Shown here: positions 45,072 through 58,262 of the stretch, in pieces
How the letters are laid out: every line of letters starts with the position of its first letter
How positions within the stretch are numbered: the first letter of the stretch is position 1
Virus record (IMG/VR): IMGVR_UViG_3300018089_000001
Coordinates: 96,001-160,000 of that record
DNA length: 64,000 bases
Origin: a virus
Taxonomy: Duplodnaviria > Caudoviricetes
Strand: one strand, 5' to 3'
The notes under the pieces: generated by a model
What the model was told of the DNA's origin: nothing
The model's database searches: none
What the model saw: only the letters and a program-made list of their open reading frames with translations
Translations under genes and position numbers: made by a program

Positions 45072-45784
45072 CAGGGCTTCTGGCAGCTGAAGACGAGGTC
45101 CGGGACCGACATCTGCACCGCGGGGACCAGCGACACTCCGATCCACAGAGGAGGCGGCGGGTCGAACCGCAGTCCGTCGGTGTGCATCCGCATGTCCGCG
45201 AAGCCCGCGTTGGCGAAGATCTGCCGCATGTCGTGGAGGTTGTAGAACGCCACGTGCCCCCCGTGGTACACCTCGGTGTCACCCGAGGTGTGCGGGAAGA
45301 CGCCGTTGACCACGAGGCTCTGGAGGTGCCGCCAGTACTGAATGTTCGGTGTGTTAATCAACACCCGACCACCGGGTCTGAGGACCCGATGACACTCCCT
45401 CGCGAATTTCTCCGGATCAAGGACATGCTCGATGAAGTCGAGCGCCGTGATGAGGTCCGCCGAGCCCTGTTCGAACATGGAGAGGCCGATGGCGTCGACG
45501 TTAGCCAGGACGAAGCCACTGCCTTTTGCCAAAGCGGGAGCCCGACAGGCCTCAGCGATCTCAACAACGTATCGATGCGGAAACAGGTCGCGCAGGGAGT
45601 ATCCGAGGTTTCCAGTGGCGCCGCCCACATCGACCAACACCCCCGATGTAGGAAAGCCTCCAGCGCGGATCAAAGCGGCAGCCCGATCGATGCGGCCGTT
45701 CCCTCCGGAGTACGGAGCAGTCGCTGACTCCTCACCTTTCCGCGCAGCGAGATCGTCGTAGAGTTTCTTGAACGCATCAGGCAT
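45071..45784 (-). CDS. SAM-dependent methyltransferase
   Basis: VDVGGATG, DFIEHV, RVLRPGG, TPN. Confidence 0.85.
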   Translation of the reverse strand: MPDAFKKLYDDLAARKGEESATAPYSGGNGRIDRAAALIRAGGFPTSGVLVDVGGATGNLGYSLRDLFPHRYVVEIAEACRAPALAKGSGFVLANVDAIGLSMFEQGSADLITALDFIEHVLDPEKFARECHRVLRPGGRVLINTPNIQYWRHLQSLVVNGVFPHTSGDTEVYHGGHVAFYNLHDMRQIFANAGFADMRMHTDGLRFDPPPPLWIGVSLVPAVQMSVPDLVFSCQKP

Positions 45785-46838
45785 CTTTTAGCCATTCTAC
45801 CACATCACGCCAGCGGGCCTTCACGGAGAGGTCGTCCAAGGCACGGCGGTGGCCCTGTTCAGCGATCTTTTCCCTATGAACGGGGCCGCTGTGCCTCGTG
45901 TCATAGGGAGAGATTCCGAGGAACCAGCGTATCTGGTTCTCCAACTGGTTCTCAGAACTGAAGTATGCGCAGTGAACGAGGCCCTGAAAGTCCTCACGCA
46001 TGCCCGGATCGTCGATCTCCTGCGAGAGCATGAATGAGCCGACGTAGGGGATCTCGTAGGCCCGCATCGTCTTGCCACGGTCGGCTGCACCACGGAGGTT
46101 CAGGGCGATCCGCGACCTCTGGATGACGTCGAAGTACTGGGCCTTCGGGACGAAGTTCCCGAACGAGTCCGGCTCAGTCTCGAGAACCAGATGCAGGCGT
46201 AGATCCGGGAAGGCGCGTCGAATGAACTCGACGTACCGCTGCCTGTCCGGATGGCTGTTGTACCCGATGAAGGACACGTCGATGTCCTTCGCGGGGGGCT
46301 CCGCGGGCCTCGTCCAGTAGTGATCGAAATTGCACGACCACCCGATCCGGCGGGCCTTGAAGGGTAGGGTCGCGTAGCCGGGATACCAGTTGTCGAGCAG
46401 CATCGCCTGCAGCCTGTCCCCGTACAGGGAGGCCACGAACTCCGGGGAGTGGTTCCAGAAGCGGTCGTGGCCCGCCACGACGACGACGCGGGCGTCCGTC
46501 GTATGGAGGCCGAGTATCCGGTACCTCTGGAAGCTCTCCATCCGCTCGTCGAGCCAGATGCGGGTGATGGGAGCGACATCGATCGGGCGCACCCTCTTTC
46601 CACCGACCGTCAGGCCGCGATCGTCGGGGATCGACCGCACGAAGCCGAGGGTCCTCCGTTCGAGGCCCCAGTCGGGTTGCCTCGTCCCGTTCAGGACGTC
46701 CCACCACTCCCGGTGCTTCTCCTTGTACGGCACGTCGACCAGGTTGACGCCGTTGGCGAGCAGCCCAGCGCGGCACAGGTCGAGTGACCAGTCTCCCCCG
46801 TCACGCAGGTCGATCAGGAACTCCAACCCGTCAGGCAT
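45777..46838 (-). CDS. Glycosyltransferase (CgeB-like)
   Basis: DIDVSFIG, RSRIALN, RAYEI. Confidence 0.78.
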   Translation of the reverse strand: MPDGLEFLIDLRDGGDWSLDLCRAGLLANGVNLVDVPYKEKHREWWDVLNGTRQPDWGLERRTLGFVRSIPDDRGLTVGGKRVRPIDVAPITRIWLDERMESFQRYRILGLHTTDARVVVVAGHDRFWNHSPEFVASLYGDRLQAMLLDNWYPGYATLPFKARRIGWSCNFDHYWTRPAEPPAKDIDVSFIGYNSHPDRQRYVEFIRRAFPDLRLHLVLETEPDSFGNFVPKAQYFDVIQRSRIALNLRGAADRGKTMRAYEIPYVGSFMLSQEIDDPGMREDFQGLVHCAYFSSENQLENQIRWFLGISPYDTRHSGPVHREKIAEQGHRRALDDLSVKARWRDVVEWLKDA

Positions 46839-47505
46839 CGAAGTCCTCGAAGTACCGCGACGGGATCTGGGACAGGAACGTCCGCATGTGGTGTAGGCCG
46901 ATGTTCGTCTCCCACGTCCAGTGGAGGGTCAGGACGACGTCGTGGCCCCGGTCGCTCTTCTCCATCATCCGGAGGTGCGACTCGCGCGTGAGCAGCTCGT
47001 CGCAGCGGCCGTACTCGTGCGGGGCGACGCTGTGGACACACATGCCGCCGAAGAAGTCCCGGACGTCCGTGTCCGTCTCCGGGCCCGAGGTGAACCACCG
47101 GAAGCCGACCTCGTCGAGAAGACTCGCGGTCCGCCAGTCGATGACGTTCCGCGGGGGCATGTAGATCCTGACGGGCCTGTTGACCACGGCCTCCAGAGCG
47201 AGGCGATGGTCCTCGAGCTGGCCGGCGACCTGCCTCGTCGAGAGGTACGGCTCGAACTGGTTCCCGCCGCTCCTGTCCAGCCGCGCCTCGTCGTGGTCCG
47301 TGCCGTGCATGCCGATGACACAGTCAGTCTCCCTCTGCAGGGCCAGCAGGTCCTCCGCCGTGCACCTTCCGGGGATGACCCCAAGGAGATACCTCTTCCC
47401 GCCGATGAGCGCGCTCAGCTCACGGTGGAACTCACGGAAGGCCGCCAGCGTGTGCTGCGGCTCCCCCCTCGTCTGGGGAAAGTCGTCCACTCGTACTCTG
47501 ATCAT
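46831..47505 (-). CDS. Polysaccharide deacetylase-like protein
   Basis: RVDD, GVIP, MHGTDH, YMPPRN, LTLH. Confidence 0.75.
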   Translation of the reverse strand: MIRVRVDDFPQTRGEPQHTLAAFREFHRELSALIGGKRYLLGVIPGRCTAEDLLALQRETDCVIGMHGTDHDEARLDRSGGNQFEPYLSTRQVAGQLEDHRLALEAVVNRPVRIYMPPRNVIDWRTASLLDEVGFRWFTSGPETDTDVRDFFGGMCVHSVAPHEYGRCDELLTRESHLRMMEKSDRGHDVVLTLHWTWETNIGLHHMRTFLSQIPSRYFEDFDA

Positions 47506-48118
47506 GCGGTTTCCTCAGGATGATCTCGATGGCGTACTCCCCCACGGGATGCACGTCCTCGGGAAGGGTGTAGTCGTAGCCGGCGTCGATGACCCGGAAG
47601 TCCATCACGTCGACGTTCCCCAGGGCGTTGGCGCACTCGCCGACCAACGAGAGCGTGTGGGGATCCTCGTACCTGTCGGGCAGCCAGAAGCTGAGGTGCC
47701 CGCCGCCTCCCTCGCGGTCATGGGGGTTCCAGCGACTGGGATGGGTCCTCCTCTTCTCGTAGAGGTCCCGATGGGGGACCGCGACGATGAGGTTGCCGCC
47801 GGGCTGGAGCACCCTCCACCAGTTGCGAAGAGCCGCCCGAGGATCGGGGAGGTGTTCGAGGATGTGGGAGGCGTAGACGGTGGCGAAGGAGCCGTCGGGG
47901 ATTCCCGCAAGGGTCTGGGCGTCCCGCGGTCCCGGGCTATTCACGCAGGTCAATTGACTCTCACTCTCGACGTAGGTCCACTGGTAATCCCAGTGGACCG
48001 TCCCCAACAGCGGAAGCGGGTCGACGCCGGATCCGATGTCCAACACCGGTAGTCGGACGAACCGCTGATACCACTGTTCCTGCATCCTTCGCGGATGCGC
48101 CTTGCTGGTCTCAGCCAT
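47432..48118 (-). CDS. SAM-dependent methyltransferase
   Basis: LDIGSG, ASHILEH, RVLQPGG. Confidence 0.82.
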   Translation of the reverse strand: MAETSKAHPRRMQEQWYQRFVRLPVLDIGSGVDPLPLLGTVHWDYQWTYVESESQLTCVNSPGPRDAQTLAGIPDGSFATVYASHILEHLPDPRAALRNWWRVLQPGGNLIVAVPHRDLYEKRRTHPSRWNPHDREGGGGHLSFWLPDRYEDPHTLSLVGECANALGNVDVMDFRVIDAGYDYTLPEDVHPVGEYAIEIILRKPHDQSTSGRLSPDEGGAAAHAGGLP

Positions 48119-48779
48119 TGAGGACCCTCTCCATCGCGGGCAGGACGACCTCCCCGTAGATCGCCTCGGGGCGCAGGTGGACGCCGTCATCGGAGACGAA
48201 CCGCGCGGCGTCGGGCGGGCAGATCACATGGACCCTACTCGATCCCACGATGAGCATCTCGGGCAAGACGGCCGTCAGGAACCTCCTGAGCGTCTCCATG
48301 CGACCGAAGGCCAGGTTCCCGCAAGGGGCGTTGAAGTGCGCCGGCGTCTCCCCACCGAGGGGATAGTGGAAGCCGAAGTACACGAAGACGTTCCCCTTGA
48401 CCCTTCCGGTGGCGAGCAGGTCCTCGTCTATGAACGACCGGTATCGCGTCACCAGCTCGAACGCCTTGGCCGCCATGAGCGTGTTATCGGGACGGAAGTA
48501 CCGACGGTTATGGTACCGCATGTCGACCTCTCCGAAGACGAGGCCGACGTTCTGGACGCCGCCCTTGTCATCCAGGGTCGCAAGGACGTGCTTCCGGGCA
48601 CCCCTCTCCGAGTCTTCATGCAGGAGACCCCACATGGTGGCTCCCGAGAGCTCGCTGCCGGTCGTGTCCAGGGTCACGATCCCACGCTCCTCATGGAACA
48701 CGCCGGGCTCCCCGGTGTTCAGGAACGGAAAGAAGACCCGCCAGTGTGAGTCCCCGAAGACATACACCTCATGCGACAC
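48111..48779 (-). CDS. SGNH hydrolase/acyltransferase-like protein
   Basis: VFGDSH, GAT, FGEVD, DGVH. Confidence 0.75.
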   Translation of the reverse strand: MSHEVYVFGDSHWRVFFPFLNTGEPGVFHEERGIVTLDTTGSELSGATMWGLLHEDSERGARKHVLATLDDKGGVQNVGLVFGEVDMRYHNRRYFRPDNTLMAAKAFELVTRYRSFIDEDLLATGRVKGNVFVYFGFHYPLGGETPAHFNAPCGNLAFGRMETLRRFLTAVLPEMLIVGSSRVHVICPPDAARFVSDDGVHLRPEAIYGEVVLPAMERVLNG

Positions 48780-49800
48780 GCTCGATCTCCTCGACGTAGG
48801 AGCGCCACTCAGAGCAAAATCGTTCCGATGATAGATCACGCTCAACAAGCATCCGGGAGTTCGACGAAAACCTATCATGAAGAAATTCGTCAGCGAGACA
48901 TGCGCGAACTTTCTCTAGGGTGACCCCCGGCTTCCTTTCCTTCCGATCAATGACTGTTCCTAGCCATGGAACAGACCAAAGATAGCCCACGTCGTATCCA
49001 ACAACTGGAACTCCGCAAGCCAATCCCTCAGCCACAAACATGCTGTTGCCCTCAAATGCTGAGGGATGGACAATGAGGTTCGCCTGGGATAGGACTTCCG
49101 GTTTCGTCCAGAGTCGATCGGAGAAAAGTTGGAACATCCCATAGGCTTCGTCGAGGCTCAGCACGTCGGCGTCGAGTTCCCTCTGGAGGAGCTCAATGTG
49201 GTCCCACCCCTTGTTCAGGTTCGATCGGTCGTTGACCCCATGGAGGATGAGCGGGCGGTGTAGATACGAACACACATACTCACGCGGTCGATAGAGCGTC
49301 GTGTCCACGCCGTTGTTGATCACGCGATTGACCGCGAAGCCCCACTGCAGACGCATCTGCTCGGCGATGAAGTCTGAGACTGCCGTGATCCGCTTCCCGA
49401 GTTTAGTCCACCGCCGCCTGAACGACACCTGGGCCGCGTGGTGCAACGGCATGTCGGGTTCCCTACCCGCCAGGACGTCCTCATGAGTCAAATGCGACCA
49501 GATGCCGTGGCTGTGACTGATCGCGAACGGGAGGGCGTCGAGGCCGTCGGCCCAGAACCCGTCGGCCACGACCACGTCGTCCAGGCGGACCTTCCGCGAC
49601 GCGAGCAGGTACTGGTTCAGGACCCGCGCCTTCTGCCATTCGGACAGCAGGGCGTCCGAGCCCGCGTCGTGTGGGCAGTCGTCCCAGCAGAAGTGCCGGC
49701 ACTCGCGCTCGGGAAACGAGGCATGGAGGTCCCGATTGAACTTCGGGACCCCGCCGCCGGCGTCGAGACCGGTGTATGAGACCGTGACGAGGCGACGCAT
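48769..49800 (-). CDS. Glycosyltransferase GT4
   Basis: GGV, AVSDF, NGVD, KGWD, PSAFEG...EGLACGVPVV. Confidence 0.88.
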   Translation of the reverse strand: MRRLVTVSYTGLDAGGGVPKFNRDLHASFPERECRHFCWDDCPHDAGSDALLSEWQKARVLNQYLLASRKVRLDDVVVADGFWADGLDALPFAISHSHGIWSHLTHEDVLAGREPDMPLHHAAQVSFRRRWTKLGKRITAVSDFIAEQMRLQWGFAVNRVINNGVDTTLYRPREYVCSYLHRPLILHGVNDRSNLNKGWDHIELLQRELDADVLSLDEAYGMFQLFSDRLWTKPEVLSQANLIVHPSAFEGNSMFVAEGLACGVPVVGYDVGYLWSVPWLGTVIDRKERKPGVTLEKVRACLADEFLHDRFSSNSRMLVERDLSSERFCSEWRSYVEEIERVA

Positions 49801-50222
49801 CAGAAGGAGCCGCTGAGGACGGTGACCCGTCCGACGTCCTCGAGCGACCCGCTCCAGTTGAGCGGCACCTTCACGAGGTGAACCTCATCGGTGAGACCCC
49901 GCCCAACATACACCGGGAAGTTACACACGTATAGACGGCCGATGTATGCGCCACGCGCATGCACCTGCTCCGAGGTCACCGTCACGGGCTTGAAGAGCGC
50001 CGAAGACTGGAGGACGCTTCCCACGTTTTCAGAGGTGACGATGCGGTACTGGTCATCAAACTCGACGCCGCTGTCAGACACGGCCTGGGCCATGTCGCTC
50101 ACGGTGAGCGCCAATGTCTGGAACCAATCGCGCGCCGTGCCTGCGAATGTCCCTGAGACGGGTGTGCCCGTCGTCTCATCGACAAAACTGCCCGGGACGC
50201 GACACCAGAAATACTCAACCAT
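49800..50222 (-). CDS. Stand-alone fragment resembling the gp23-type major capsid protein central region
   Basis: YFWCRVPGSFVDETTG...FAGTARDWFQTL...RIVTSENVGSVL...IGRL...PVYV parallels the W.R.PG.FV...F.GT..EW..TL...IV.S..VA.IL segment of gp23-like capsids (recalled pattern, not searched). Confidence 0.6.
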   Translation of the reverse strand: MVEYFWCRVPGSFVDETTGTPVSGTFAGTARDWFQTLALTVSDMAQAVSDSGVEFDDQYRIVTSENVGSVLQSSALFKPVTVTSEQVHARGAYIGRLYVCNFPVYVGRGLTDEVHLVKVPLNWSGSLEDVGRVTVLSGSF

Positions 50223-51054
50223 TGCGGATCCTCTCCTTGTCGGCCTCGCTCTCCGGCAGCTCACGCTTGAGCCACGTACTCCGATCGTAGCCTGCGTGTT
50301 GGACAAGACCGGGGACGACCAGGCAGGTGCGACCGGTCCGACAGACGGAGTTCTCGTGGTTCCTAATGAGCCACCAGTCGACCCCGCTGCCAATCCCGTC
50401 GTTCGGCTTCGCGCGGACCCGACCGGTCTCCGGATCGAGACGGGGGATCGGCATCATGCTCTCCCAGTACTGACGGGTCCCCAGCATCTGGGCGGCCCTG
50501 ATCCAGTCCTTGAGGAGCATGCCACCCGTCAGGTTGTACTTGATCGGATGCTCCACGCACTCCAGACCGGTGGCGAAGCCGACGTTGTAGAGCCTCTCGT
50601 AGGCCCTGAAGCGGGAGGCGAGCAGCGGCAGCCAGTTCGGGGTGTATAGGAGGTCGTCCTGACACATCACGACATACGGCGCCACCCTCTCGGGGTCTCC
50701 GTGGGTGGGATGGGCGTACCAGTCGTTCACTGACTTGATGTGCGCGATCGCCCGGTTGATGGTCGGACCGAGGCCCTCGTTCTCGTTGGACCGCAGGATG
50801 TAGTCGGCGTTCATCTGCAGTTGCCGCAGGTACTTCGTCTGGACGGACATCTGATAGGCGGACATGTCCTCCGGAGAGACCCCCTCCGTGTGTCCGTCGA
50901 AGCATAGCGTCAGGCGAAACTGGCTCCTCTCCGTGTTCTTTAGAAGGGAAGCCAGAGACGACACGGTGAGCGGGATACGCTCAGCGGTCGGTTTGATCGT
51001 GACGAAGATGTCAGCTATCAGCGCCATCGGTGGGTCCTTGCTTACTCGGATCAC
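50215..51054 (-). CDS. Glycosyltransferase, GT-A fold (GT2-like)
   Basis: NEGLG..IN, CQDDLLY, GVDW, VQHAG. Confidence 0.75.
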   Translation of the reverse strand: MIRVSKDPPMALIADIFVTIKPTAERIPLTVSSLASLLKNTERSQFRLTLCFDGHTEGVSPEDMSAYQMSVQTKYLRQLQMNADYILRSNENEGLGPTINRAIAHIKSVNDWYAHPTHGDPERVAPYVVMCQDDLLYTPNWLPLLASRFRAYERLYNVGFATGLECVEHPIKYNLTGGMLLKDWIRAAQMLGTRQYWESMMPIPRLDPETGRVRAKPNDGIGSGVDWWLIRNHENSVCRTGRTCLVVPGLVQHAGYDRSTWLKRELPESEADKERIRNG

Positions 51055-51346
51055 CCGGGATGTAATCGCAGATGTACCCGACCTTCTGGGCCCTCATCAT
51101 CGTCTCATAGAGGTTGGGCTTCCCGATTCCAGCGATCTCCTGCATCCGGCGATATCCCCTCTTGACTCGCCAGCGGTAGTACAGATACCACGCCGCGAAC
51201 CGGAAGGCCCTCTTCGCGTAGTGCTTGGCCCTTCGGACAGCGCGGCTGAACCGCGAGTTCCCCGGCCTCCGGGGCTTGAGGGGTCCGTAGCTCATCTGGA
51301 CCGCGAGCATCTCGAGCGGCCGATCGTCCCTCACTTCCCAGCCCAT
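51011..51346 (-). CDS. Basic hypothetical protein
   Basis: TGATG coupling to the upstream GT gene. Confidence 0.45.
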   Translation of the reverse strand: MGWEVRDDRPLEMLAVQMSYGPLKPRRPGNSRFSRAVRRAKHYAKRAFRFAAWYLYYRWRVKRGYRRMQEIAGIGKPNLYETMMRAQKVGYICDYIPGDPSKQGPTDGADS

Positions 51347-54300
51347 CAGACCCATCCCTTCATCGAGGCCGGCGCCTCGATCTCCAGTTCGAACGTCGCG
51401 GCGGGCCCGTGCTCCCCGCCTCTCTTCCTGAGTTCCTCGGCCTTCCGCGCGACGTCGTCGTCGGTCGTCACGTCCGGAAACCTCGGCTCCGGTGGGGTCT
51501 GATACAACACAGACCACTGCTTGTCCCAGAAATCCCGGAAGTTCCGGACCTTCCGCGGGAGGTCGGCCCAGCTGTAGTGCCAGACTGACGGCAGCGAGGC
51601 GAACAGGGCGTTCATCTGCCGCCCGTATTCCGCCGGGTCCCGCTGGCGCAGCCCGTCGAGCTCCTTGGTATAGAACCCGCGGTGCTTGACATGGTCACCG
51701 GTGACCATGTCGATCAGTTCGCACCCGTCGGACATGCCGCGCTTGGCATAGATCCTGCCGGTCTTCGGATCGATGACCCGCGCCTGCGCGTTGATCCCGT
51801 GGGTGATGCGCAGGTTATTCCGACTGAGCCGCCACTTCCAGGAGTGGCGGTCGGTGCGGACATGCCTATCGTCCCCCCAGAGCTCGACCACTGGGAGATG
51901 CACGACGTCGACGTCGGCGGGGAACCTCTTGCAGAGCTCGCGAATCTTCCCGTAGTCCCGCTCGTGGACCACCTCGTCCGCGTCCTGCTGCCAGAGGAAC
52001 TCCGTCTCGGGGGAGACCATGGCCCGGCCGAAGGCCTTCTGCATGCCGTCCATGCCGGGCTCCTCGGGGTCCCACTCACGCGTGATGAGCTTCAGCTTCC
52101 CGACGGCCAGGGGATGCAGCATCGCCAATTCCTGGACTTTCTCCCGGCTGCCGTCCGTCGACCCACCGTCCACGACGATCACCTCGTCGCAGAAGCCGAG
52201 CATACTGACGATGCTCTGGACATACGGATAGCCGTGCGTCAGCGGATTGAGGATGTGGGTGTAACCCGCGATCCGCGGCCTGTACGGCTTGAACCTGACC
52301 TCCTGACCGGGCCTGAGGCAGTCCATCGCCTCGAGGAAGACCCGCTCGACCGGGATGCCGTTGATGCACGGGTCATCGGTGTCGACGGCGCAGGTGTCCT
52401 TGTAGCAGGCCCGCTCGCAGCCCTTCCGGTCAGTCGTCTCGATGAGACGCAGGCGCCGCGAGGCGTCATACACGAGGGTCCCGCACGCGATGCCCTCACG
52501 CTCCATCTCCGCGAGCTGGAAGTCCTTCGGACCGGTGCTCCGGGGGTATGAGCTGCCAAAGATCGCGATGACCTTGCAGCCGACCGCGTTCGCCACGTGC
52601 ATCGGGTAGGAGTCGATGCAGGCGATCGCGCCGACGTCGTCCAGGACGGAGACCAGCTCGATGTGGGACCGGCCCCTCGCGTCGAAATCCACGGGACCCA
52701 CGGGGACGTCGTCGGAGGCCCCGACCTGGACCACCTTGATCCCATTGTCCCGCAGGTTGCGCACTAGCTCAGACCAACCGGCCCACCGGCGGGCCGTCTT
52801 CTGGCCACCGGCGTGGACCGCGATCCAGGCGCCCACGTTCAGTCCCGGAAACTGTACCCGGGAGAGCTCGCTTCCCCTGGGAAAGACGGGCGGCTGGGCC
52901 TCGACGCCGCAGTGGTTCGCGAACTCGTCGATGAGGTTCCTGCCCCGTCCGCGGTGGACCCAGTTCGACCAGGCCATCTGGACCGCCAGGTTCGGGGTGT
53001 AGACCTCGTCGAAGATGTCCTCGAGGATCGAGACGTCCTGCATCCAGGGCTGCCACTCGAGCAGCTCATCCACCAACAGGGAGCCGTCCCCGAGTCGAAG
53101 GTCCCTCACGATGTCGAAGTACCTGGGGGAGGTGGCGAAGTAGACCCGATGTCCCGGGTGCTTGTCCCTCAGGGCCCGCACGACGCCAGTGCTGAGGAAG
53201 ATGTCCCCGGCTGACATCGGCATGGTGTAGACGAGCGCGGGACCCTTCTCCCGGACCCTGCGCCTGTTCTCGCGGACGAAGTCCCTCCGGGACTTCGGGG
53301 ACGCCTGGGCCAGCTGGTCGACGCCCCGCGCCAGCAGGTCGCAGAAGGCCGCTCCGGCGGAGGCAAGCGAGTACCGCTGGGCGATGTGCTGGGCCAGTTC
53401 GGCGGCCCACTGGCGCGGGGTGTCTGAGTTCAGGGCCATCTTCTGGAGCTTGACGCAGACGTCGGTCTCCCTGGGCACGGCCCAGTTCGTCCCGGCCTCC
53501 ATCACTCCCTCCCAGGCGCACTCCTGGGGGATGGGCTGCATGTCACACTCGAAGGGGACGAAGAGGCGCTTCCCGTCCTTGTGCAGGAAGTCGAGGTGCC
53601 CGGACCAGTTGGTGGCCATGACGGGCAGGCCGCACGCGGCCGCCTCGATCATTGGCAGGCCGAAGCCCTCGCCGTGGGTCAGGCTGACGGCGGCGACCAC
53701 GCGCGGGTCGTTATACAGCGCGGCCATCTCCGCCTCGGAGAGCCTGCCGTGGATGACCCGGATCGTCGGGAACTCCCCGCAGCCGGTCGAGGCCTTGATC
53801 TCCGCCACCCGCCGCTTGACGAGCTCGAAGTCCACCGTGGAGTAGTTCACGATGGAGGTCTTCAGGACCAGGCCGACGGACCTGCTCCCGGCGAAGGTCT
53901 TGCAGAAGTACTCGACCAGCCGCGTGACGTTCTTCCGGTCCTTGCCGTGTGGCTTGTCGAGGCCCAGGCCGACGAAGACGAAGCTCCGCTGCGGGAGGTC
54001 GTACTCGGTCAGCGTCGCCTCGGCCGGACGGTACACCGAGGTGTCGACGCCCTCCGGGATGACCATGATCGGCTTCTCGAGGTGGAGCTTCGACCCGTCG
54101 GACCCCTGGTACTCGACCATGAACGACGTGCGGGAGTGCTCCGAGGGGACGACGACGACGTCGACCTCCTGGTTGCACTTCATGATCCACTGCGGCGAGA
54201 CCCGGTCGACCTCGATCCCCGCGGTGACCCCGATCGTCAGCGGGGCCCGTCGCTTGAACTCGTTCGGAATCGTGACCTGCACGGCGACCTCGGGGTCGGC

Positions 54301-54498
54301 GTGGGTGCCCTGCAGAGCCATGATCCAGACGAACTCCGTCCCATTCAAGATCGGCGTGTCCCCCCATTTGATCGACTCGACGCGTACGTCGTACAGTCCG
54401 GTGTCGACGACGGACCTGAGCAGCTGACGGGCATGGACGCCGTAGCCGGAAGCAGTCAGAACGGGACCGGTGAACTGGAGCCTCGTCTTCGCCATCAT
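51346..54498 (-). CDS. Tri-domain glycosyltransferase (GT4 + GT9 + GT2-like)
   Basis: SGYG...GEGFGLPMIEAAACGLPV; AGDIFL...W...DSYPMHVA; DEVIVVDGGSTD...QDADEV. Confidence 0.85.
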   Translation of the reverse strand: MMAKTRLQFTGPVLTASGYGVHARQLLRSVVDTGLYDVRVESIKWGDTPILNGTEFVWIMALQGTHADPEVAVQVTIPNEFKRRAPLTIGVTAGIEVDRVSPQWIMKCNQEVDVVVVPSEHSRTSFMVEYQGSDGSKLHLEKPIMVIPEGVDTSVYRPAEATLTEYDLPQRSFVFVGLGLDKPHGKDRKNVTRLVEYFCKTFAGSRSVGLVLKTSIVNYSTVDFELVKRRVAEIKASTGCGEFPTIRVIHGRLSEAEMAALYNDPRVVAAVSLTHGEGFGLPMIEAAACGLPVMATNWSGHLDFLHKDGKRLFVPFECDMQPIPQECAWEGVMEAGTNWAVPRETDVCVKLQKMALNSDTPRQWAAELAQHIAQRYSLASAGAAFCDLLARGVDQLAQASPKSRRDFVRENRRRVREKGPALVYTMPMSAGDIFLSTGVVRALRDKHPGHRVYFATSPRYFDIVRDLRLGDGSLLVDELLEWQPWMQDVSILEDIFDEVYTPNLAVQMAWSNWVHRGRGRNLIDEFANHCGVEAQPPVFPRGSELSRVQFPGLNVGAWIAVHAGGQKTARRWAGWSELVRNLRDNGIKVVQVGASDDVPVGPVDFDARGRSHIELVSVLDDVGAIACIDSYPMHVANAVGCKVIAIFGSSYPRSTGPKDFQLAEMEREGIACGTLVYDASRRLRLIETTDRKGCERACYKDTCAVDTDDPCINGIPVERVFLEAMDCLRPGQEVRFKPYRPRIAGYTHILNPLTHGYPYVQSIVSMLGFCDEVIVVDGGSTDGSREKVQELAMLHPLAVGKLKLITREWDPEEPGMDGMQKAFGRAMVSPETEFLWQQDADEVVHERDYGKIRELCKRFPADVDVVHLPVVELWGDDRHVRTDRHSWKWRLSRNNLRITHGINAQARVIDPKTGRIYAKRGMSDGCELIDMVTGDHVKHRGFYTKELDGLRQRDPAEYGRQMNALFASLPSVWHYSWADLPRKVRNFRDFWDKQWSVLYQTPPEPRFPDVTTDDDVARKAEELRKRGGEHGPAATFELEIEAPASMKGWV

Positions 54499-55559
54499 CC
54501 CCTCGCGATGATCAGGCCGGAGCTGCCGGCCCCCATCTTCCGCTCGTATGCGTCCAGGACCTCGAGGCCCTGGAACAGATCGATCATCGGCTCCCAGCCG
54601 AGGACGTCCCGGGCCTTGGTGACGTCGGCGAGCGTCACGTTCGCTTCACCGGGCCTGGGTGGGACGTACTCGACGTTGACCGCGCTACTGATCATCGCGT
54701 TCGCAAAGTGCCGCGCCTCGATGATCGAGGCCAGCTCCGCGATGCTGTAGTTGCGGCCCGCCCCGATGTTGAAGACCCCCGTGGCCTCGTGGTTCATCAT
54801 GGCGAGCATGTTCGCCCGCACGACGTCCCCCACGAACGTGAAGTCCCGCCGCTGCGTGCCGTCACCGACGATCGTCATCCTCTGCCCGAGCCTGAGCTGG
54901 CGGCGGAAGATCGCGATGACAGTGGCGTACCGGCCCTCCTCCTGATGACGGGGTCCGTAGACGTTGAAGTACCGGAGGCTGACGGTGGAGATCCCGTACA
55001 GCCGGTGGTATACGTCCATGACGTCCTCGCCCGCCTTCTTGCTCACGCTGTACGGGTTGAGGCAGTCAGTGGGAAGGTCCTCGTGTAGACCCTTCACGTG
55101 GGGACCCGGCTTGGGCCCATCAGGAGAATCAACGCACCAATGATGCCCATCGTAGTTTGGGTCAAAAACCCAATCATTCCTTCGACCGTACGCCGACGAG
55201 CTCGCGGAGTAGACGATCCGGGCCACGCCCATCTGCCGGGCCGCCTCGGCCACGTTCACCGTGCCAACGACGTTGGTCTCGACGGAGTGCCGCGGGTCGG
55301 CGATGCCCGTCTGGATGCGGGAGTCGGCGGCGAGGTGGAACACGCACGATGCGTGGTCGCACGCCCGCCTGACCAGGTCGAAGTCCAGGATCGAGCCCCG
55401 GATGACCTGCAGCTTGGGATGCCGCCGCCACCGCTCGAGGTTGGCGTCCCGACCCTCGGAGAAGTCGTCCAGGACCCGGACCTCCATCCCCTGCGTGAGG
55501 AGCTCGTCAACGAGGTTCGAGCCGATGAAGCCGGCCCCGCCCGTCACGAGGACCGGCAT
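54495..55559 (-). CDS. NAD-dependent sugar epimerase/dehydratase
   Basis: VTGGAGFIGS, YSVSK, RYFNVYGP, GDGTQRRDF. Confidence 0.92.
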   Translation of the reverse strand: MPVLVTGGAGFIGSNLVDELLTQGMEVRVLDDFSEGRDANLERWRRHPKLQVIRGSILDFDLVRRACDHASCVFHLAADSRIQTGIADPRHSVETNVVGTVNVAEAARQMGVARIVYSASSSAYGRRNDWVFDPNYDGHHWCVDSPDGPKPGPHVKGLHEDLPTDCLNPYSVSKKAGEDVMDVYHRLYGISTVSLRYFNVYGPRHQEEGRYATVIAIFRRQLRLGQRMTIVGDGTQRRDFTFVGDVVRANMLAMMNHEATGVFNIGAGRNYSIAELASIIEARHFANAMISSAVNVEYVPPRPGEANVTLADVTKARDVLGWEPMIDLFQGLEVLDAYERKMGAGSSGLIIARG

Positions 55560-55873
55560 CAGAACTCTCCCTTGAACGAGGGGGGCTCGGTAGCCTCGGC
55601 CTTCTGGACCACGGTCCCGAGGAAGTTCTTGATCAGGCAGGTCTGGATCGTCTGGTTACCGATCCTGTGGGACGTCACTCCGATCATGTCACAAAGGACG
55701 ACGTCCCCCGCCTTGAACCCGTCGGCCTCAGGAGCGTTCTCGTCGAGTGCGACGATGCTCGCCAGGCGGTACTGGTTCGTAACGTTGCCGGGAACGTACA
55801 GGCTCCCGACCTTGTCCGCCTCGTCGATCGTCTTGATCCAGGCGTACCTGTTGCGTGGCTTCAGTTCGAACAT
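55559..55873 (-). CDS. GroES-like co-chaperonin
   Basis: LKPRNRY..., GSLYVP mobile loop, KAGDVVL, C-terminal FLGTV. Confidence 0.72.
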   Translation of the reverse strand: MFELKPRNRYAWIKTIDEADKVGSLYVPGNVTNQYRLASIVALDENAPEADGFKAGDVVLCDMIGVTSHRIGNQTIQTCLIKNFLGTVVQKAEATEPPSFKGEF

Positions 55874-55881
55874 GGTCTCCT

Positions 55882-57207
55882 TCAGATGCTGGCCGTCCTC
55901 AGTCCGATCTTACCACGGCGGGAGGCGTGTTGTTCCATGGCCTTGGTCAGGCCGGCGTCCCAGCCATCGAGCATGGTCTGCATGCCAAAGGTCCTGGTCG
56001 CCCACTCCCGGGCCTCCAGTCCGATCTTCCGGCGGGCCGTGCGGGGGATCCGATAGACCTTCTCCAGGGCGTCGGCGACCTGGTCGTCGTTGACCCGGTC
56101 GTCGTAGATGTACGGGACCTGCTGCGATCCCACGAGATTGCGGGCCGCTGGAAAGACCGGCACGCCCCACCACCTGTGGGTGTTCCTCCGGGACTTCGCG
56201 ACCTTCGTGAGTCTCTCCTGGTCAGAGAAGTCCCGCTGGTCCTGCCACCAGTCACCGACCTGAAACTGCAGGCCGCCGGTCATGTTCACCACGATCGGGG
56301 TACCCGCGTAGAGTGCCTCGAGGGTGCCCAACCCGAAGCCCTCGTTGTTACTGATGTTGATCACGCAGTCAGCACAGTTGTACATCACGTTCAGCTGCGA
56401 GGCGTCCACCCGTCCCTCCGAGAGGAGGAGGAGGTCCTGCACATCGAGCCTCCTCGCGACCGCGTTCACGTCCTGGCCCTCGGGGTCACCCGGGGCCGTG
56501 TGCATGAGCAACGCGACGCGGTCCCTCCCGACTCGCTTGGCAAGCCGAGCGAACGACTCGAGCACGTCGCCCGTCATCTTCCGCCTGGCGTTGCGGTTGT
56601 TCCACATCAGGATGAACTCGCGGGAGGCGAAGGGTCCGTAGTGGCGCCGACGGGCCTCGAGGACCTCGCTCTCCGGGAGGGGCCTGAACAGGTCGGCCGG
56701 CTCCGCGTGGGGGACATAGCTGTACCGCTCCTCGGGATACCCGAGTCCCTGGAGGATCCCGAAGGTCTTCAGGGACAGGGTCATGATGTAGTCCGTGGCC
56801 TCGTAGATGGGCCGGTTGAACTCGGGAGTCGGGTCGTTGTCCCACACGTGCCAATAGACGAGGGGGCAGACCGCCCGCACCTCGTCCTCCATCTCCCAGA
56901 CCCAGTAGAAGAACCTCGGGTCCGTGAAGAGGACCACCGCGTCCGGCTTCAACTCCGCGAGCATCCGCCGAAGCTTGTCCTTGTCCCCGTGCCCGTCGAC
57001 CGGATGGATCACCCAGTTGCCCTCCCCGAACTCGTCAGGGGACACCTGTTGGGGTGTGTAATCCGGGTGTTTGATCGCCCCGCCGAGGCAGGTGAAGCTG
57101 TACTTCCCTGTCTTGAGCAGGCCGCTGATTGTATATTTCGCTTGAATGCCGACGCCTGACGGAACAAGCGGGTGGTCACTGAGCCAGAGTATCTTCTTGC
57201 GGGTCAC
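55882..57207 (-). CDS. Glycosyltransferase GT4
   Basis: SDHP..PSGVG, NRNARRK, NEGFGLGTLEA. Confidence 0.88.
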   Translation of the reverse strand: MTRKKILWLSDHPLVPSGVGIQAKYTISGLLKTGKYSFTCLGGAIKHPDYTPQQVSPDEFGEGNWVIHPVDGHGDKDKLRRMLAELKPDAVVLFTDPRFFYWVWEMEDEVRAVCPLVYWHVWDNDPTPEFNRPIYEATDYIMTLSLKTFGILQGLGYPEERYSYVPHAEPADLFRPLPESEVLEARRRHYGPFASREFILMWNNRNARRKMTGDVLESFARLAKRVGRDRVALLMHTAPGDPEGQDVNAVARRLDVQDLLLLSEGRVDASQLNVMYNCADCVINISNNEGFGLGTLEALYAGTPIVVNMTGGLQFQVGDWWQDQRDFSDQERLTKVAKSRRNTHRWWGVPVFPAARNLVGSQQVPYIYDDRVNDDQVADALEKVYRIPRTARRKIGLEAREWATRTFGMQTMLDGWDAGLTKAMEQHASRRGKIGLRTASI

Positions 57208-57228: not shown

Positions 57229-58113
57229 TTACTCAGACCGCGGGCAGTGCTCGGTTCCGAGGAAGGGGCACGCGGCGCGTCTCTCCTGCTTGGTCCGCCG
57301 GTCTATCCAGACCCTCTCGCACGCCTCGGGGTTCTTCTCGTATGCGTACGAGTGCATGCCCGAGATGGACCTCTGCATGTACTCCAGGGCCTGCTCCGTG
57401 GCCCTCGGTCCCGCGGAGACCTTCCGGACGTCCACCGTCAGCTCGTCCGCCGTCCGGGGGTCCTTCTTGAGGAGGATGAAGGCCACCGAGACGTTCCTCG
57501 GGTCGGCGCCCATCGTCTTACAGAAGAAGTGCTTGTACAGGAGGAGCTGGGAGATCACCTCCATGTCCTGGAACTTCTGGGCCGGCCAGCCCCAGGAGCA
57601 TGTCTTGAAGTCAGCGATGTAGATCACCGTCTTCCGCTTCAGACGCTTCACGAAGGTGATGTCGATGAAGCCCTTGAACATCATCTCCAGCCCGTCGGTG
57701 CGGGAGATCGGCTGCATCAGCCGCATCTCAGACACGAGGCTCCTGATGCCCTGCAGCTCGGGATGCCTGAGGCAGTCCCGATAGAACCGCTCGATGAAGG
57801 GCCGGACCCGATAGGCCTCCTCCACGTCGGAGGAATGGGTCAGGTTCAGCTCGAGGAGTGAGCGGTCGTACATCTCCAGGGCGTGCGCGGTGGCCTTGGC
57901 CACGTCACCCGGGGAATCAGGATCGTACAGGATCTCCAGGCCGGCGTGGACGGCCTTGCCGAACTCTATCTGGAACGATCGGTCGTCTGGGGCCAGCCCG
58001 TAGACCTTCGTCAGGAGCCAGCGCCACTGGCACTCGTTGAAGAGCCTGAGCTCGCTGAAGGAGACGTGCTCCCGGAGCTGTCCGCAGAGCGGCAGGTGGA
58101 CCCTTCTTGACAC
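57229..58113 (-). CDS. PD-(D/E)XK exonuclease (Cas4/AddB-like)
   Basis: SFSEL...C, FGKAVH, GFID, ADFKT, QLLLY, C-terminal Cys cluster; GTG start at 58113. Confidence 0.85.
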   Translation of the reverse strand: MSRRVHLPLCGQLREHVSFSELRLFNECQWRWLLTKVYGLAPDDRSFQIEFGKAVHAGLEILYDPDSPGDVAKATAHALEMYDRSLLELNLTHSSDVEEAYRVRPFIERFYRDCLRHPELQGIRSLVSEMRLMQPISRTDGLEMMFKGFIDITFVKRLKRKTVIYIADFKTCSWGWPAQKFQDMEVISQLLLYKHFFCKTMGADPRNVSVAFILLKKDPRTADELTVDVRKVSAGPRATEQALEYMQRSISGMHSYAYEKNPEACERVWIDRRTKQERRAACPFLGTEHCPRSE

Positions 58114-58262
58114 GGCCTCTCCTCTCCCAGGTACTGGGCGTTCATACCGCAACACTCGTCTCCGCAGAATGTGAGCCCGCAGTGCGGACACTCAGAGGGT
58201 GACGCGCCCTTGAAAATCGCACCGCATCCGTAGACCGGATCGCACCCATACCACCAGGTCAT
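58011..58262 (-). CDS. Small Cys-rich protein
   Basis: MTWWYGCDPVYGCG...CPHCG...CGDECCG; overlaps the nuclease start, so uncertain. Confidence 0.4.
   Translation of the reverse strand: MTWWYGCDPVYGCGAIFKGASPSECPHCGLTFCGDECCGMNAQYLGEERPCQEGSTCRSADSSGSTSPSASSGSSTSASGAGS

Follow-up and report, generated by a model that had tools for sequence, protein, structure and literature searches.

A stand-alone capsid A-domain encoded in a glycosyltransferase operon of a large environmental phage

In capsomers of the HK97 type, the axial (A) domain takes part in subunit contacts with its two helices and its C-terminal strand, and the satellite capsid homologues of phage-inducible chromosomal islands (PICIs) are full-length proteins that build or resize capsids. 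Glycosylation of the phage virion is, to our knowledge, established experimentally only for mycobacteriophages, which is also the only setting known to us in which a capsid-like protein beside glycosyltransferase (GT) genes makes direct sense. Here, we describe P0001, a protein of 140 residues encoded among GT genes in a 64,000-nucleotide stretch of viral DNA (the window; bases 96001-160000 of the 185,486-bp IMG/VR record IMGVR_UViG_3300018089_000001, hereafter G000, estimated completeness 91%). P0001 is a free-standing A-domain of a major capsid protein (MCP) of the gp23/HK97 type and belongs to a family of such stand-alone domains, which we call minis.

Mycobacteriophage GTs glycosylate capsid and tail-tube subunits (PMC12619734, citing Freeman et al. 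2023). Host sensors recognize the A-domain itself: Avs7, Avs8, and Avs10 bind its capsomer-forming face, with SeAvs7 enveloping the P-domain and E-loop as well (PMC13581612), and CapRel touches an A-domain loop in addition to the P-domain (PMC9712102).

P0001 is a real, intact gene. Its frame is open without stops over 140 codons on the minus strand, from ATG at 50222 to TGA at 49802-49800. A longer, TTG-started frame covers 49800-50393; we place the start at 50222, because homology to the family begins at M-V-E-Y-F-W, the point at which most stand-alone relatives start. The gene and its signals are as follows.

49800..50222 including the stop codon, minus strand: P0001 gene (mini, stand-alone capsid A-domain, 140 aa), supported by its intact frame, MCP homology, fold, and family profile
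50229..50238, minus strand: Shine-Dalgarno-like AAGGAGAGGA, 6 nt ahead of the P0001 ATG, in the last codons of the GT2-like gene
50215..50222, minus strand: 8-nt overlap ATGGTTGA of the P0001 start with the stop of the GT2-like gene, read from the sequence
49798..49802, minus strand: TGATG, one-base overlap of the P0001 stop with the GT4 gene start, read from the sequence

The GC content of P0001 at the three codon positions (0.61/0.46/0.77) resembles that of the adjacent genes, the GT4 gene having 0.74 at the third position. An artefact of gene calling in a high-GC genome (the window has ~64% GC) is ruled out by homology, family membership, and frame-specific GC. The original prediction had described a translationally coupled gene of 140 codons, as the overlaps at both ends and the AAGGAGAGGA ribosome site bear out, and had named decay into a pseudogene as one of two findings that would overturn its case. 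No decay was seen: the frame is intact, the codon-position GC is genome-like, P0001 reaches 94.7 bits against the family profile built without it, and its fold is predicted with confidence (predicted local distance difference test, pLDDT, 93.5). Among public sequencing runs, no RNA run is listed with this sequence, the sole match being a peat-metagenome DNA run from which the assembly may stem, and GenBank phages (50,697 records) hold no nucleotide match for the 12-kb surroundings.

The phage's own MCP is a gp23-type protein of 579 residues (PF07068, E 2e-64) encoded outside the window, ~57 kb from P0001.

~87.7-89.4 kb of the G000 record (L003:226-1965), minus strand: own gp23-type MCP, identified by PF07068

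It carries a long Ser/Thr/Gly/Ala-rich insertion, roughly at residues 110 to 340. A single PF07068-type gene was found in the G000 record, and a separate gp24-like vertex paralogue was not detected there. Searched by tblastn against the 185-kb record, residues 3-85 of P0001 match this MCP with E 6e-17 and 40% identity; BLASTP places them on MCP residues 399-481 (35% identity over 84 aa). The remainder aligns through the last strand of the MCP, where GRVTVL faces GTVTVMDL at the C-terminal end. Overall, P0001 aligns to MCP residues 399-579 minus 523-561, with 31% identity over 135 aligned columns. Similarity to gp23-type proteins also extends beyond this genome: among GenBank phages, the sole match of P0001 is the 'major head protein' of Rhodothermus phage RM378 (E 5e-5). 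P0001 stays below the Pfam Gp23 gathering score, with no Pfam match at E <= 0.1, has no match in PHROGs and, searched alone, none among PDB sequences, and a word-based search of proteins of similar length returned only P0001 itself. With 140 residues and the A-domain part only, it does not have the complete HK97 fold of a shell-length subunit.

Folded from its single sequence with AlphaFold, P0001 gave no usable model (pLDDT 35). With an alignment of 71 stand-alone relatives, the model reached pLDDT 93.5 and a predicted template modelling score of 0.88, so that the confident model depends on the family alignment. Foldseek matches of probability ~1 were nearly all HK97-type capsid proteins; low-probability matches to DapB represented the sole known ligand-binding family seen. 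In the VIA aligner, the top 50 structural matches were all C-terminal halves of HK97 capsid proteins or encapsulins, among them T4 gp24 (Z 10.8, 116 residues aligned, chain residues 222-423), T4 gp23 (Z 9.4, alignment across chain residues 315-520), and another match with Z 9.8. We are confident that the predicted fold is that of an HK97 A-domain, which superposes on solved capsid A-domains. P0001 is without the N-arm, E-loop, insertion domain, and P-domain and therefore cannot serve as a lattice subunit. The MCP stretch just before the first residue of P0001 (…ELTQVLSEQIALEIDREILAELL…) resembles, in our reading, the long HK97 spine helix, which would mean that the mini starts where the A-domain starts.

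Measured against these results, the original observation is confirmed, and its interpretation is sound as to structure. Its four capsid motifs follow in order and all lie within the alignment of P0001 to the phage's own MCP (residues 399-481 and on to the C-terminal strand), an alignment it had itself called for. It had assigned them to the central region of gp23, which has to be corrected: what P0001 matches is the A-domain, in the C-terminal third of the MCP. That the rest of the HK97 fold is lacking is borne out by the model, which aligns within gp24 222-423 and gp23 315-520, and similarity to gp23 is found both by sequence (own MCP, E 6e-17; family profile against T4 gp24, E 0.04) and by structure (Z 10.8 and 9.4). 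The term capsid-protein fragment holds for the nature of the domain, a capsid A-domain, but not for its source: P0001 does not derive from the phage's own capsid gene but belongs to an old, separate stand-alone family.

This family emerged from a HMMER scan of 1.84 billion representative proteins, which gave 85 matches at E <= 1e-3. About 70 of them are small proteins of 116-182 aa, or of 218-246 aa with an extension that is mostly N-terminal (that of P0018 is C-terminal); the rest are full-length or cut capsid proteins and one unrelated 1831-aa protein. Most minis align from their own first residues to query residue 1-4. They share the start motif M-x-x-[YF][YF]-W-S-R-x-P-G-K-F-V-x-K-x-T-G, followed by F-T-G-T-V-R-E-W-Y-E-T-L-x-E-x-I-D-V, I-L-E-x-S-V-L-Y-K-P, and the C-terminal G-x-V-x-V-L-D. 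Membership was defined on alignments A1/A2 by the [YF][YF]WSR-strand start, W-S-R-x-P-G-x-F, F-T-G-T-x-R-E-W-Y-E-T-L, and the C-terminal G-x-V-x-V-L-D strand. P0001 starts with M-V-E-Y-F-W and carries the diverged motifs WCR, FAGTARDWFQTL, and GRVTVLS. It departs from the consensus at 3 of 14 nearly invariant positions (S7C, E32D, E35Q), and its leave-one-out profile score of 94.7 bits compares with a family median of 116; it is a diverged yet genuine member.

Residues 523-561 of the phage's own MCP, a 39-residue segment between the last two A-domain strands, are present in full-length MCPs and absent from minis including P0001 (the segment being defined as columns filled in >80% of MCPs and empty in >80% of minis). 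In HK97 gp5, the P-domain contains the cross-linking Asn356, ~30 residues ahead of the C-terminus. Judged by its position, the missing segment is probably the late return of the chain into the P-domain; if so, the family represents a clean, domain-level excision of the A-domain. The fold core is conserved between minis and MCPs, and the long ordered loop at positions 8-29 (PGKFV.K.TG...FTG, from strand 1 to the first helix) is near-identical in the two; the best conserved parts are the two A-domain helices together with the C-terminal strand. Outside the fold core, residues that are invariant in MCPs are mostly lost (positions 48-62 and 105-130), which makes a role of minis as capsomer subunits unlikely. 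Some minis (P0018, P0019, P0031) have CxxC...CxxC insertions, resembling zinc ribbons, after the second helix, and a subgroup of ~240 aa (P0017, P0046, P0053, P0054, and others) is extended at the N-terminus by ~100 aa that match nothing in Pfam.

Ten other minis had no PHROGs match and reached the Pfam Gp23 model at best below threshold (14.8-21.1 bits against a cut-off of 24.4). In GenBank phages, P0034 matched one uncultured 484-kb phage alone and P0008 matched nothing; the nearest ESM Atlas clusters were viral hypothetical proteins and Gp23-family models. The protein cluster records contained no named member, and our literature search found no published description of the family. Pfam and PHROGs have no model of it, so annotation pipelines call minis hypothetical proteins or capsid fragments. 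Searches for viral loci with P0001 or P0008 returned no related loci. With A1 and P0002, full-length MCPs dominated, and locus-complete open reading frames (ORFs) were all >560 aa except in L037. This candidate was rejected as a frameshifted MCP: at L037:4620-6576 (IMGVR_UViG_3300020576_005098), a frameshift near the A-domain start splits the MCP into ORFs of 497 and 198 aa, the second of which a naive scan would take for a mini. A DNA pattern search for the family N-terminus yielded 2 viral and 11 metagenome stretches, of which L190, L192, and L193 repeat known loci and L191, L194, and L195 lie inside longer ORFs, with several contigs too short.

A maximum-likelihood tree was built from 71 minis and the A-regions of 18 MCPs (137 columns; a quick tree with most inner forks unresolved). 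One branch divides the MCPs from the minis (SH-aLRT 98), and P0001 has P0002 as its sister (support 94) and does not group with its own MCP. A recent duplication of the phage's own capsid gene is ruled out by this grouping and by the 31% identity to the MCP. Compared between the three near-complete genomes, the A-regions of the MCPs share 61-81% identity, the minis just 24-32%. The minis thus appear as an old, separate family that split once from capsid proteins and, by these comparisons, evolves several times faster.

To locate minis in genomes, the family profile was run on 29 other viral records. All three records at least 90% complete (G000, G005, and G006) carry minis besides their MCP, one in G005 (309 kb) and two in G006 (318 kb). 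The 37-kb record G014, reached via its own mini, also matched, and the profile found no mini in the other 26 partial records. Several of these mini-free records extend >60 kb to either side of the MCP, and the mini is therefore patchy, not universal. In their patchiness and fast evolution, minis resemble accessory or conflict genes, and the family, an accessory one of large phages from metagenomes, was seen only alongside a gp23-type MCP. Gene context could be read at seven loci.

Locus 1, this window, GC 0.64: between the GT2-like and GT4 genes
Locus 2, G005, GC 0.55: after a UDP-glucose dehydrogenase gene, with a 4-nt overlap of the listed ORFs
Locus 3, G006 copy 1, GC 0.45: 0.7 kb from the sole two GT4 genes in 318 kb
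Locus 4, L187 (identical sequence in L190 and L193), GC 0.37: CMP-sugar synthase, HAD, and methyltransferase genes upstream
Locus 5, L200, GC 0.30: downstream of the mini, genes for a cytidylyltransferase-like protein and a PfkB kinase
Locus 6, L197, 314-kb contig, GC 0.41: mini (frameshifted copy) followed by a UDP-glucose dehydrogenase gene
Locus 7, G006 copy 2, GC 0.45: among tail genes

Nucleotide-sugar or GT genes lie within two genes of the mini at six of the seven loci, across a GC range of 0.30 to 0.64. The G005 island further contains Polysacc_synt_2, DegT, and hexapeptide transferase genes, and 5 of the 6 PF00534 matches of that genome fall within 10 kb; near copy 1 of G006 are PfkB, DegT, GDP-mannose dehydratase, and epimerase genes, and downstream of the L187 mini follow a PD-(D/E)XK nuclease gene and two GT4 genes. 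For the three whole-genome cases, chance coincidence is ~1e-4 if they are independent, as a rough product of genome length (1.5% x 6% x 10%). In G000, G005, and G006 alike, however, 56-58 kb separate the mini-bearing sugar island from the MCP gene, with the island always to the same side of it. Phages of 185-318 kb and GC 0.45-0.64 thus seem to share a conserved genome layout; the loci are perhaps not fully independent, and some of the linkage may be inherited with this layout. The minis constitute a new protein family that arose from a well-known fold and shows a reproducible genomic association.

Several observations at these loci stand apart. Directly downstream of the G005 mini (L178:8544-10995) are a NadR-like cytidylyltransferase+NUDIX gene, a NAMPT gene, and then a dual-specificity phosphatase gene; we take this NAD-salvage pair to resemble phage modules for NAD-reconstitution counter-defence. 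A PD-(D/E)XK nuclease (31-41% identical between loci) adjoins the mini or lies within ~5 kb downstream at L179:8423-9304, L187:9082-9969, and L197:6199-7053, and an exonuclease-like gene (57229-58191) stands at the edge of the glycan cluster of the window. The L197 mini (L197:642-1030) is split near codon 60, with the N-terminal 68 aa in one frame and the rest (...VIVQDLNII) in another; the split may reflect recoding, a pseudogene, or an error in the assembly.

The window, which also encodes a T4-type large terminase, a gp6-like baseplate wedge protein, and an SbcCD-like nuclease, has a glycan cluster around P0001 with GT, epimerase, dehydrogenase, methyltransferase, and deacetylase genes (by Pfam or PHROGs). 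Within it, a co-oriented block (45777-57207) contains a big GT, the GT2-like gene, the GT4 gene, a 255-aa protein, a methyltransferase, a polysaccharide deacetylase, and a further GT. The genes closest to P0001 are listed here.

51346..54498, minus strand: multi-domain GT of 1050 aa with GT4, GT9, and GT2 domains (Pfam), heading the co-oriented block
50215..51054, minus strand: GT2-like gene, 279 aa, upstream of P0001 (PF00535, E 0.011, 16.2 bits against a cut-off of 23.3, sub-threshold)
48769..49800, minus strand: GT4-family GT gene, 343 aa, downstream of P0001 (PF00534, Glycos_transf_1, 28.1 bits against a cut-off of 26.4)
48111-48878: 255-aa protein with no Pfam or PHROG match, 45-46% identical to its L006 and L007 counterparts

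A position between two GTs, as first proposed, is secure on the downstream side, where the GT4 gene passes the Pfam cut-off; upstream, the neighbour is only GT2-like (16.2 against 23.3 bits). The gene order of the block is kept in low-GC and high-GC phage relatives (L006 to L011): in these six loci, four of them distinct, the big GT, GT2-like, GT4, 255-aa, and deacetylase genes follow in the same order with 37-72% identity, and some also have the methyltransferase gene. Homologues of the 1050-aa GT (48% identical) precede the GT2-like gene in L008-L011. The GT2-like homologues are 50-72% identical and are directly followed by the GT4 gene, whose homologues are 42-61% identical. At this site, synteny is kept and the mini is absent in the four distinct relatives: the GT2-like/GT4 gap measures 172, 227, 18, and 66 nt, tblastn found no trace of a mini in it, and none was found elsewhere in those contigs (34-99 kb). 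P0001 looks like a lineage-specific insertion into a conserved GT operon, gain in its lineage being the simpler reading of the mini-free relatives. Such a gain would make the placement of P0001 among GTs an event separate from those in G005, G006, and L187, and thereby strengthen the case for a functional link.

From this neighbourhood, we tentatively favour a role of the mini as a capsid-protein look-alike that serves the phage glycan machinery, a precedent being the glycosylation of capsid subunits by mycobacteriophage GTs. As a recognition module or adaptor, it would link the sugar-adding enzymes to the capsid protein that these enzymes decorate; as a surrogate acceptor, it would itself be glycosylated. 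In either version, the mini would be an optional add-on outside the core of the glycan pathway. Because P0001 is translationally coupled on both sides, production together with the flanking enzymes and in similar amounts is to be expected. Its coupling to enzyme genes and the orientation it shares with the virion genes make late production at enzyme-like amounts probable, and such a level and timing would suit a partner of enzymes more than a poison of assembly or a decoy that acts stoichiometrically. Of the three functions first proposed, the GT-to-capsid adaptor thus gains indirect support from the recurrence of minis in sugar-gene islands and loses some through the mini-free relatives, the decoy becomes more plausible with the A-domain contacts of Avs7/8/10 and CapRel, and the assembly inhibitor is weakened by the loss of most MCP-invariant residues outside the fold core.

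Several points weigh against this role. The relatives run a homologous GT operon without a mini, so the enzymes do not need it and it can only be an optional accessory. No single neighbour recurs among the GT2/GT4, UDP-glucose dehydrogenase, PD-(D/E)XK nuclease, HNH, and NadR-like genes, which disfavours a dedicated enzyme subunit. Copy 2 of G006 has no sugar gene nearby, and the seven readable loci stand for ~70 members, of which the other ~65 are unplaced. Sugar islands may be just plastic accessory regions, the G005 mini also adjoining NAD-salvage genes, and the virion is itself a presumed target of the glycan cluster.

A free A-domain might instead act as an immune decoy or sponge that occupies capsid sensors without triggering them, or that blunts capsid-triggered abortive infection, which we regard as unlikely. 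Avs7/8/10 and CapRel do contact the A-domain, and minis resemble counter-defence genes in being small, patchy (3 of 3 near-complete records, 0 of 26 partial ones), and fast-evolving, and in their accessory-region location, where the G005 mini adjoins NadR-like and NAMPT genes. Yet sensors that bind the domain they sense should thereby be activated, not blocked. Moreover, SeAvs7 also envelops the P-domain and E-loop, both absent from the mini, and most MCP-invariant residues outside the fold core are gone (48-62, 105-130). Coupled to enzymes in a seemingly late block, P0001 would face, at an enzyme-like level, a vast excess of real capsid protein, and the recurring sugar-gene neighbourhood would go unexplained. 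The Lit/Gol site to which the original prediction pointed, presumably near the gp23 N-terminus, is outside the piece matched by P0001, and we found no report of a phage-encoded A-domain decoy in the literature. Rather unlikely, too, is reuse of the A-domain scaffold off the capsid, for example as a small regulatory or ligand-binding partner in nucleotide-sugar metabolism, which would leave the capsid ancestry as mere history. Restriction of the conservation between minis and MCPs to the fold core, with the MCP-specific invariant surface segments gone, agrees with such an exaptation, as do the CxxC...CxxC insertions and ~100-aa N-terminal extensions, which fit a domain gaining new roles, and neighbours that are often sugar-nucleotide enzymes instead of transferases. 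What hints at a shared partner or constraint is the loop 8-29, which has stayed near-identical to MCPs despite the fast evolution of minis; the fold search, moreover, gave no known ligand-binding family save the low-probability DapB.

It is improbable that the free A-domain interferes with assembly by capping or poisoning the capsomers of a co-infecting phage or satellite, or those of its own phage as a timer. The two helices and the C-terminal strand, the parts expected to make subunit contacts, are indeed the best conserved, and the family is confined to phages with a gp23-type MCP. However, typical minis are no closer to a foreign MCP than to that of their own phage, so that they would poison their own phage; the segments invariant in MCPs and variable in minis are likely lattice contacts; and enzyme-coupled expression disfavours the stoichiometric amounts needed. 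We also give little credence to the view that the P0001 copy is a neutral passenger heading to decay in a family that functions elsewhere. Its changes at 3 of 14 nearly invariant positions (S7C, E32D, E35Q), a score in the lowest fifth of the family, and the frameshift of one member (L197) would suit a passenger. An open frame of 140 codons is weak evidence at 64% GC, where the window holds many spurious ORFs, and no close P0001 orthologue was found from which to gauge selection on this copy. Against decay stand homology that is in frame and full-length from the first to the last strand, a genome-like codon-position GC pattern, exact overlaps at both ends with a strong ribosome site, a confident fold prediction, and a branch that is long but not extreme (1.04; median 0.55, maximum 2.29). 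Beyond the favoured link to the glycan machinery, a wider possibility, which we consider doubtful, is that minis are capsid stand-ins, either as a handle by which glycosylation enzymes find or prime their capsid substrate or as the first phage mimic of the A-domain surface read by Avs7/8/10 and CapRel; sugar island and mimic would then form one module of counter-defence or virion shielding.

Capsid proteins are usually treated as indivisible. Here, one domain of the HK97 fold has been excised at an apparent domain boundary and maintained as a separate gene across phages of 30% to 64% GC. Should their link to sugar islands prove functional, the minis would offer a handle on virion glycosylation in large environmental phages; if they mimic the surface read by Avs and CapRel, they would represent a new class of counter-defence.

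Compared with known systems, P0001 is closest to T4 gp23 and gp24 (PF07068; PDB 5VF3, 7VRT, 6UZC, 1YUE), to which it is homologous by sequence and fold. It resembles gp24 in being a paralogue of the capsid protein that is retained alongside the main capsid gene. In contrast to gp23 and gp24, which are complete HK97-fold shell subunits of >400 aa, the mini is the A-domain alone and below the Pfam Gp23 threshold, shows a rate of evolution several times higher, and has its gene in a sugar-gene operon instead of the head module. With the satellite capsid homologues (for example, PICI Ccm and those of capsid-forming PICIs; PDB 9GYI is among the fold matches), it shares being a diverged extra copy of HK97 type put to a purpose other than that of main shell protein; unlike them, it is a single domain and is encoded by a phage instead of a satellite. 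As in mycobacteriophage virion glycosylation (PMC12619734), the substrate of the phage-encoded GTs would be the capsid protein. The mycobacteriophage glycans sit on the C-terminal tails of full-length capsid and tail-tube subunits, and no capsid-domain accessory protein is described there. Finally, the domain contacted by Avs7/8/10 (PMC13581612) and in part by CapRel (PMC9712102) is the very domain that P0001 encodes free, although these proteins are host sensors and not relatives of the mini.

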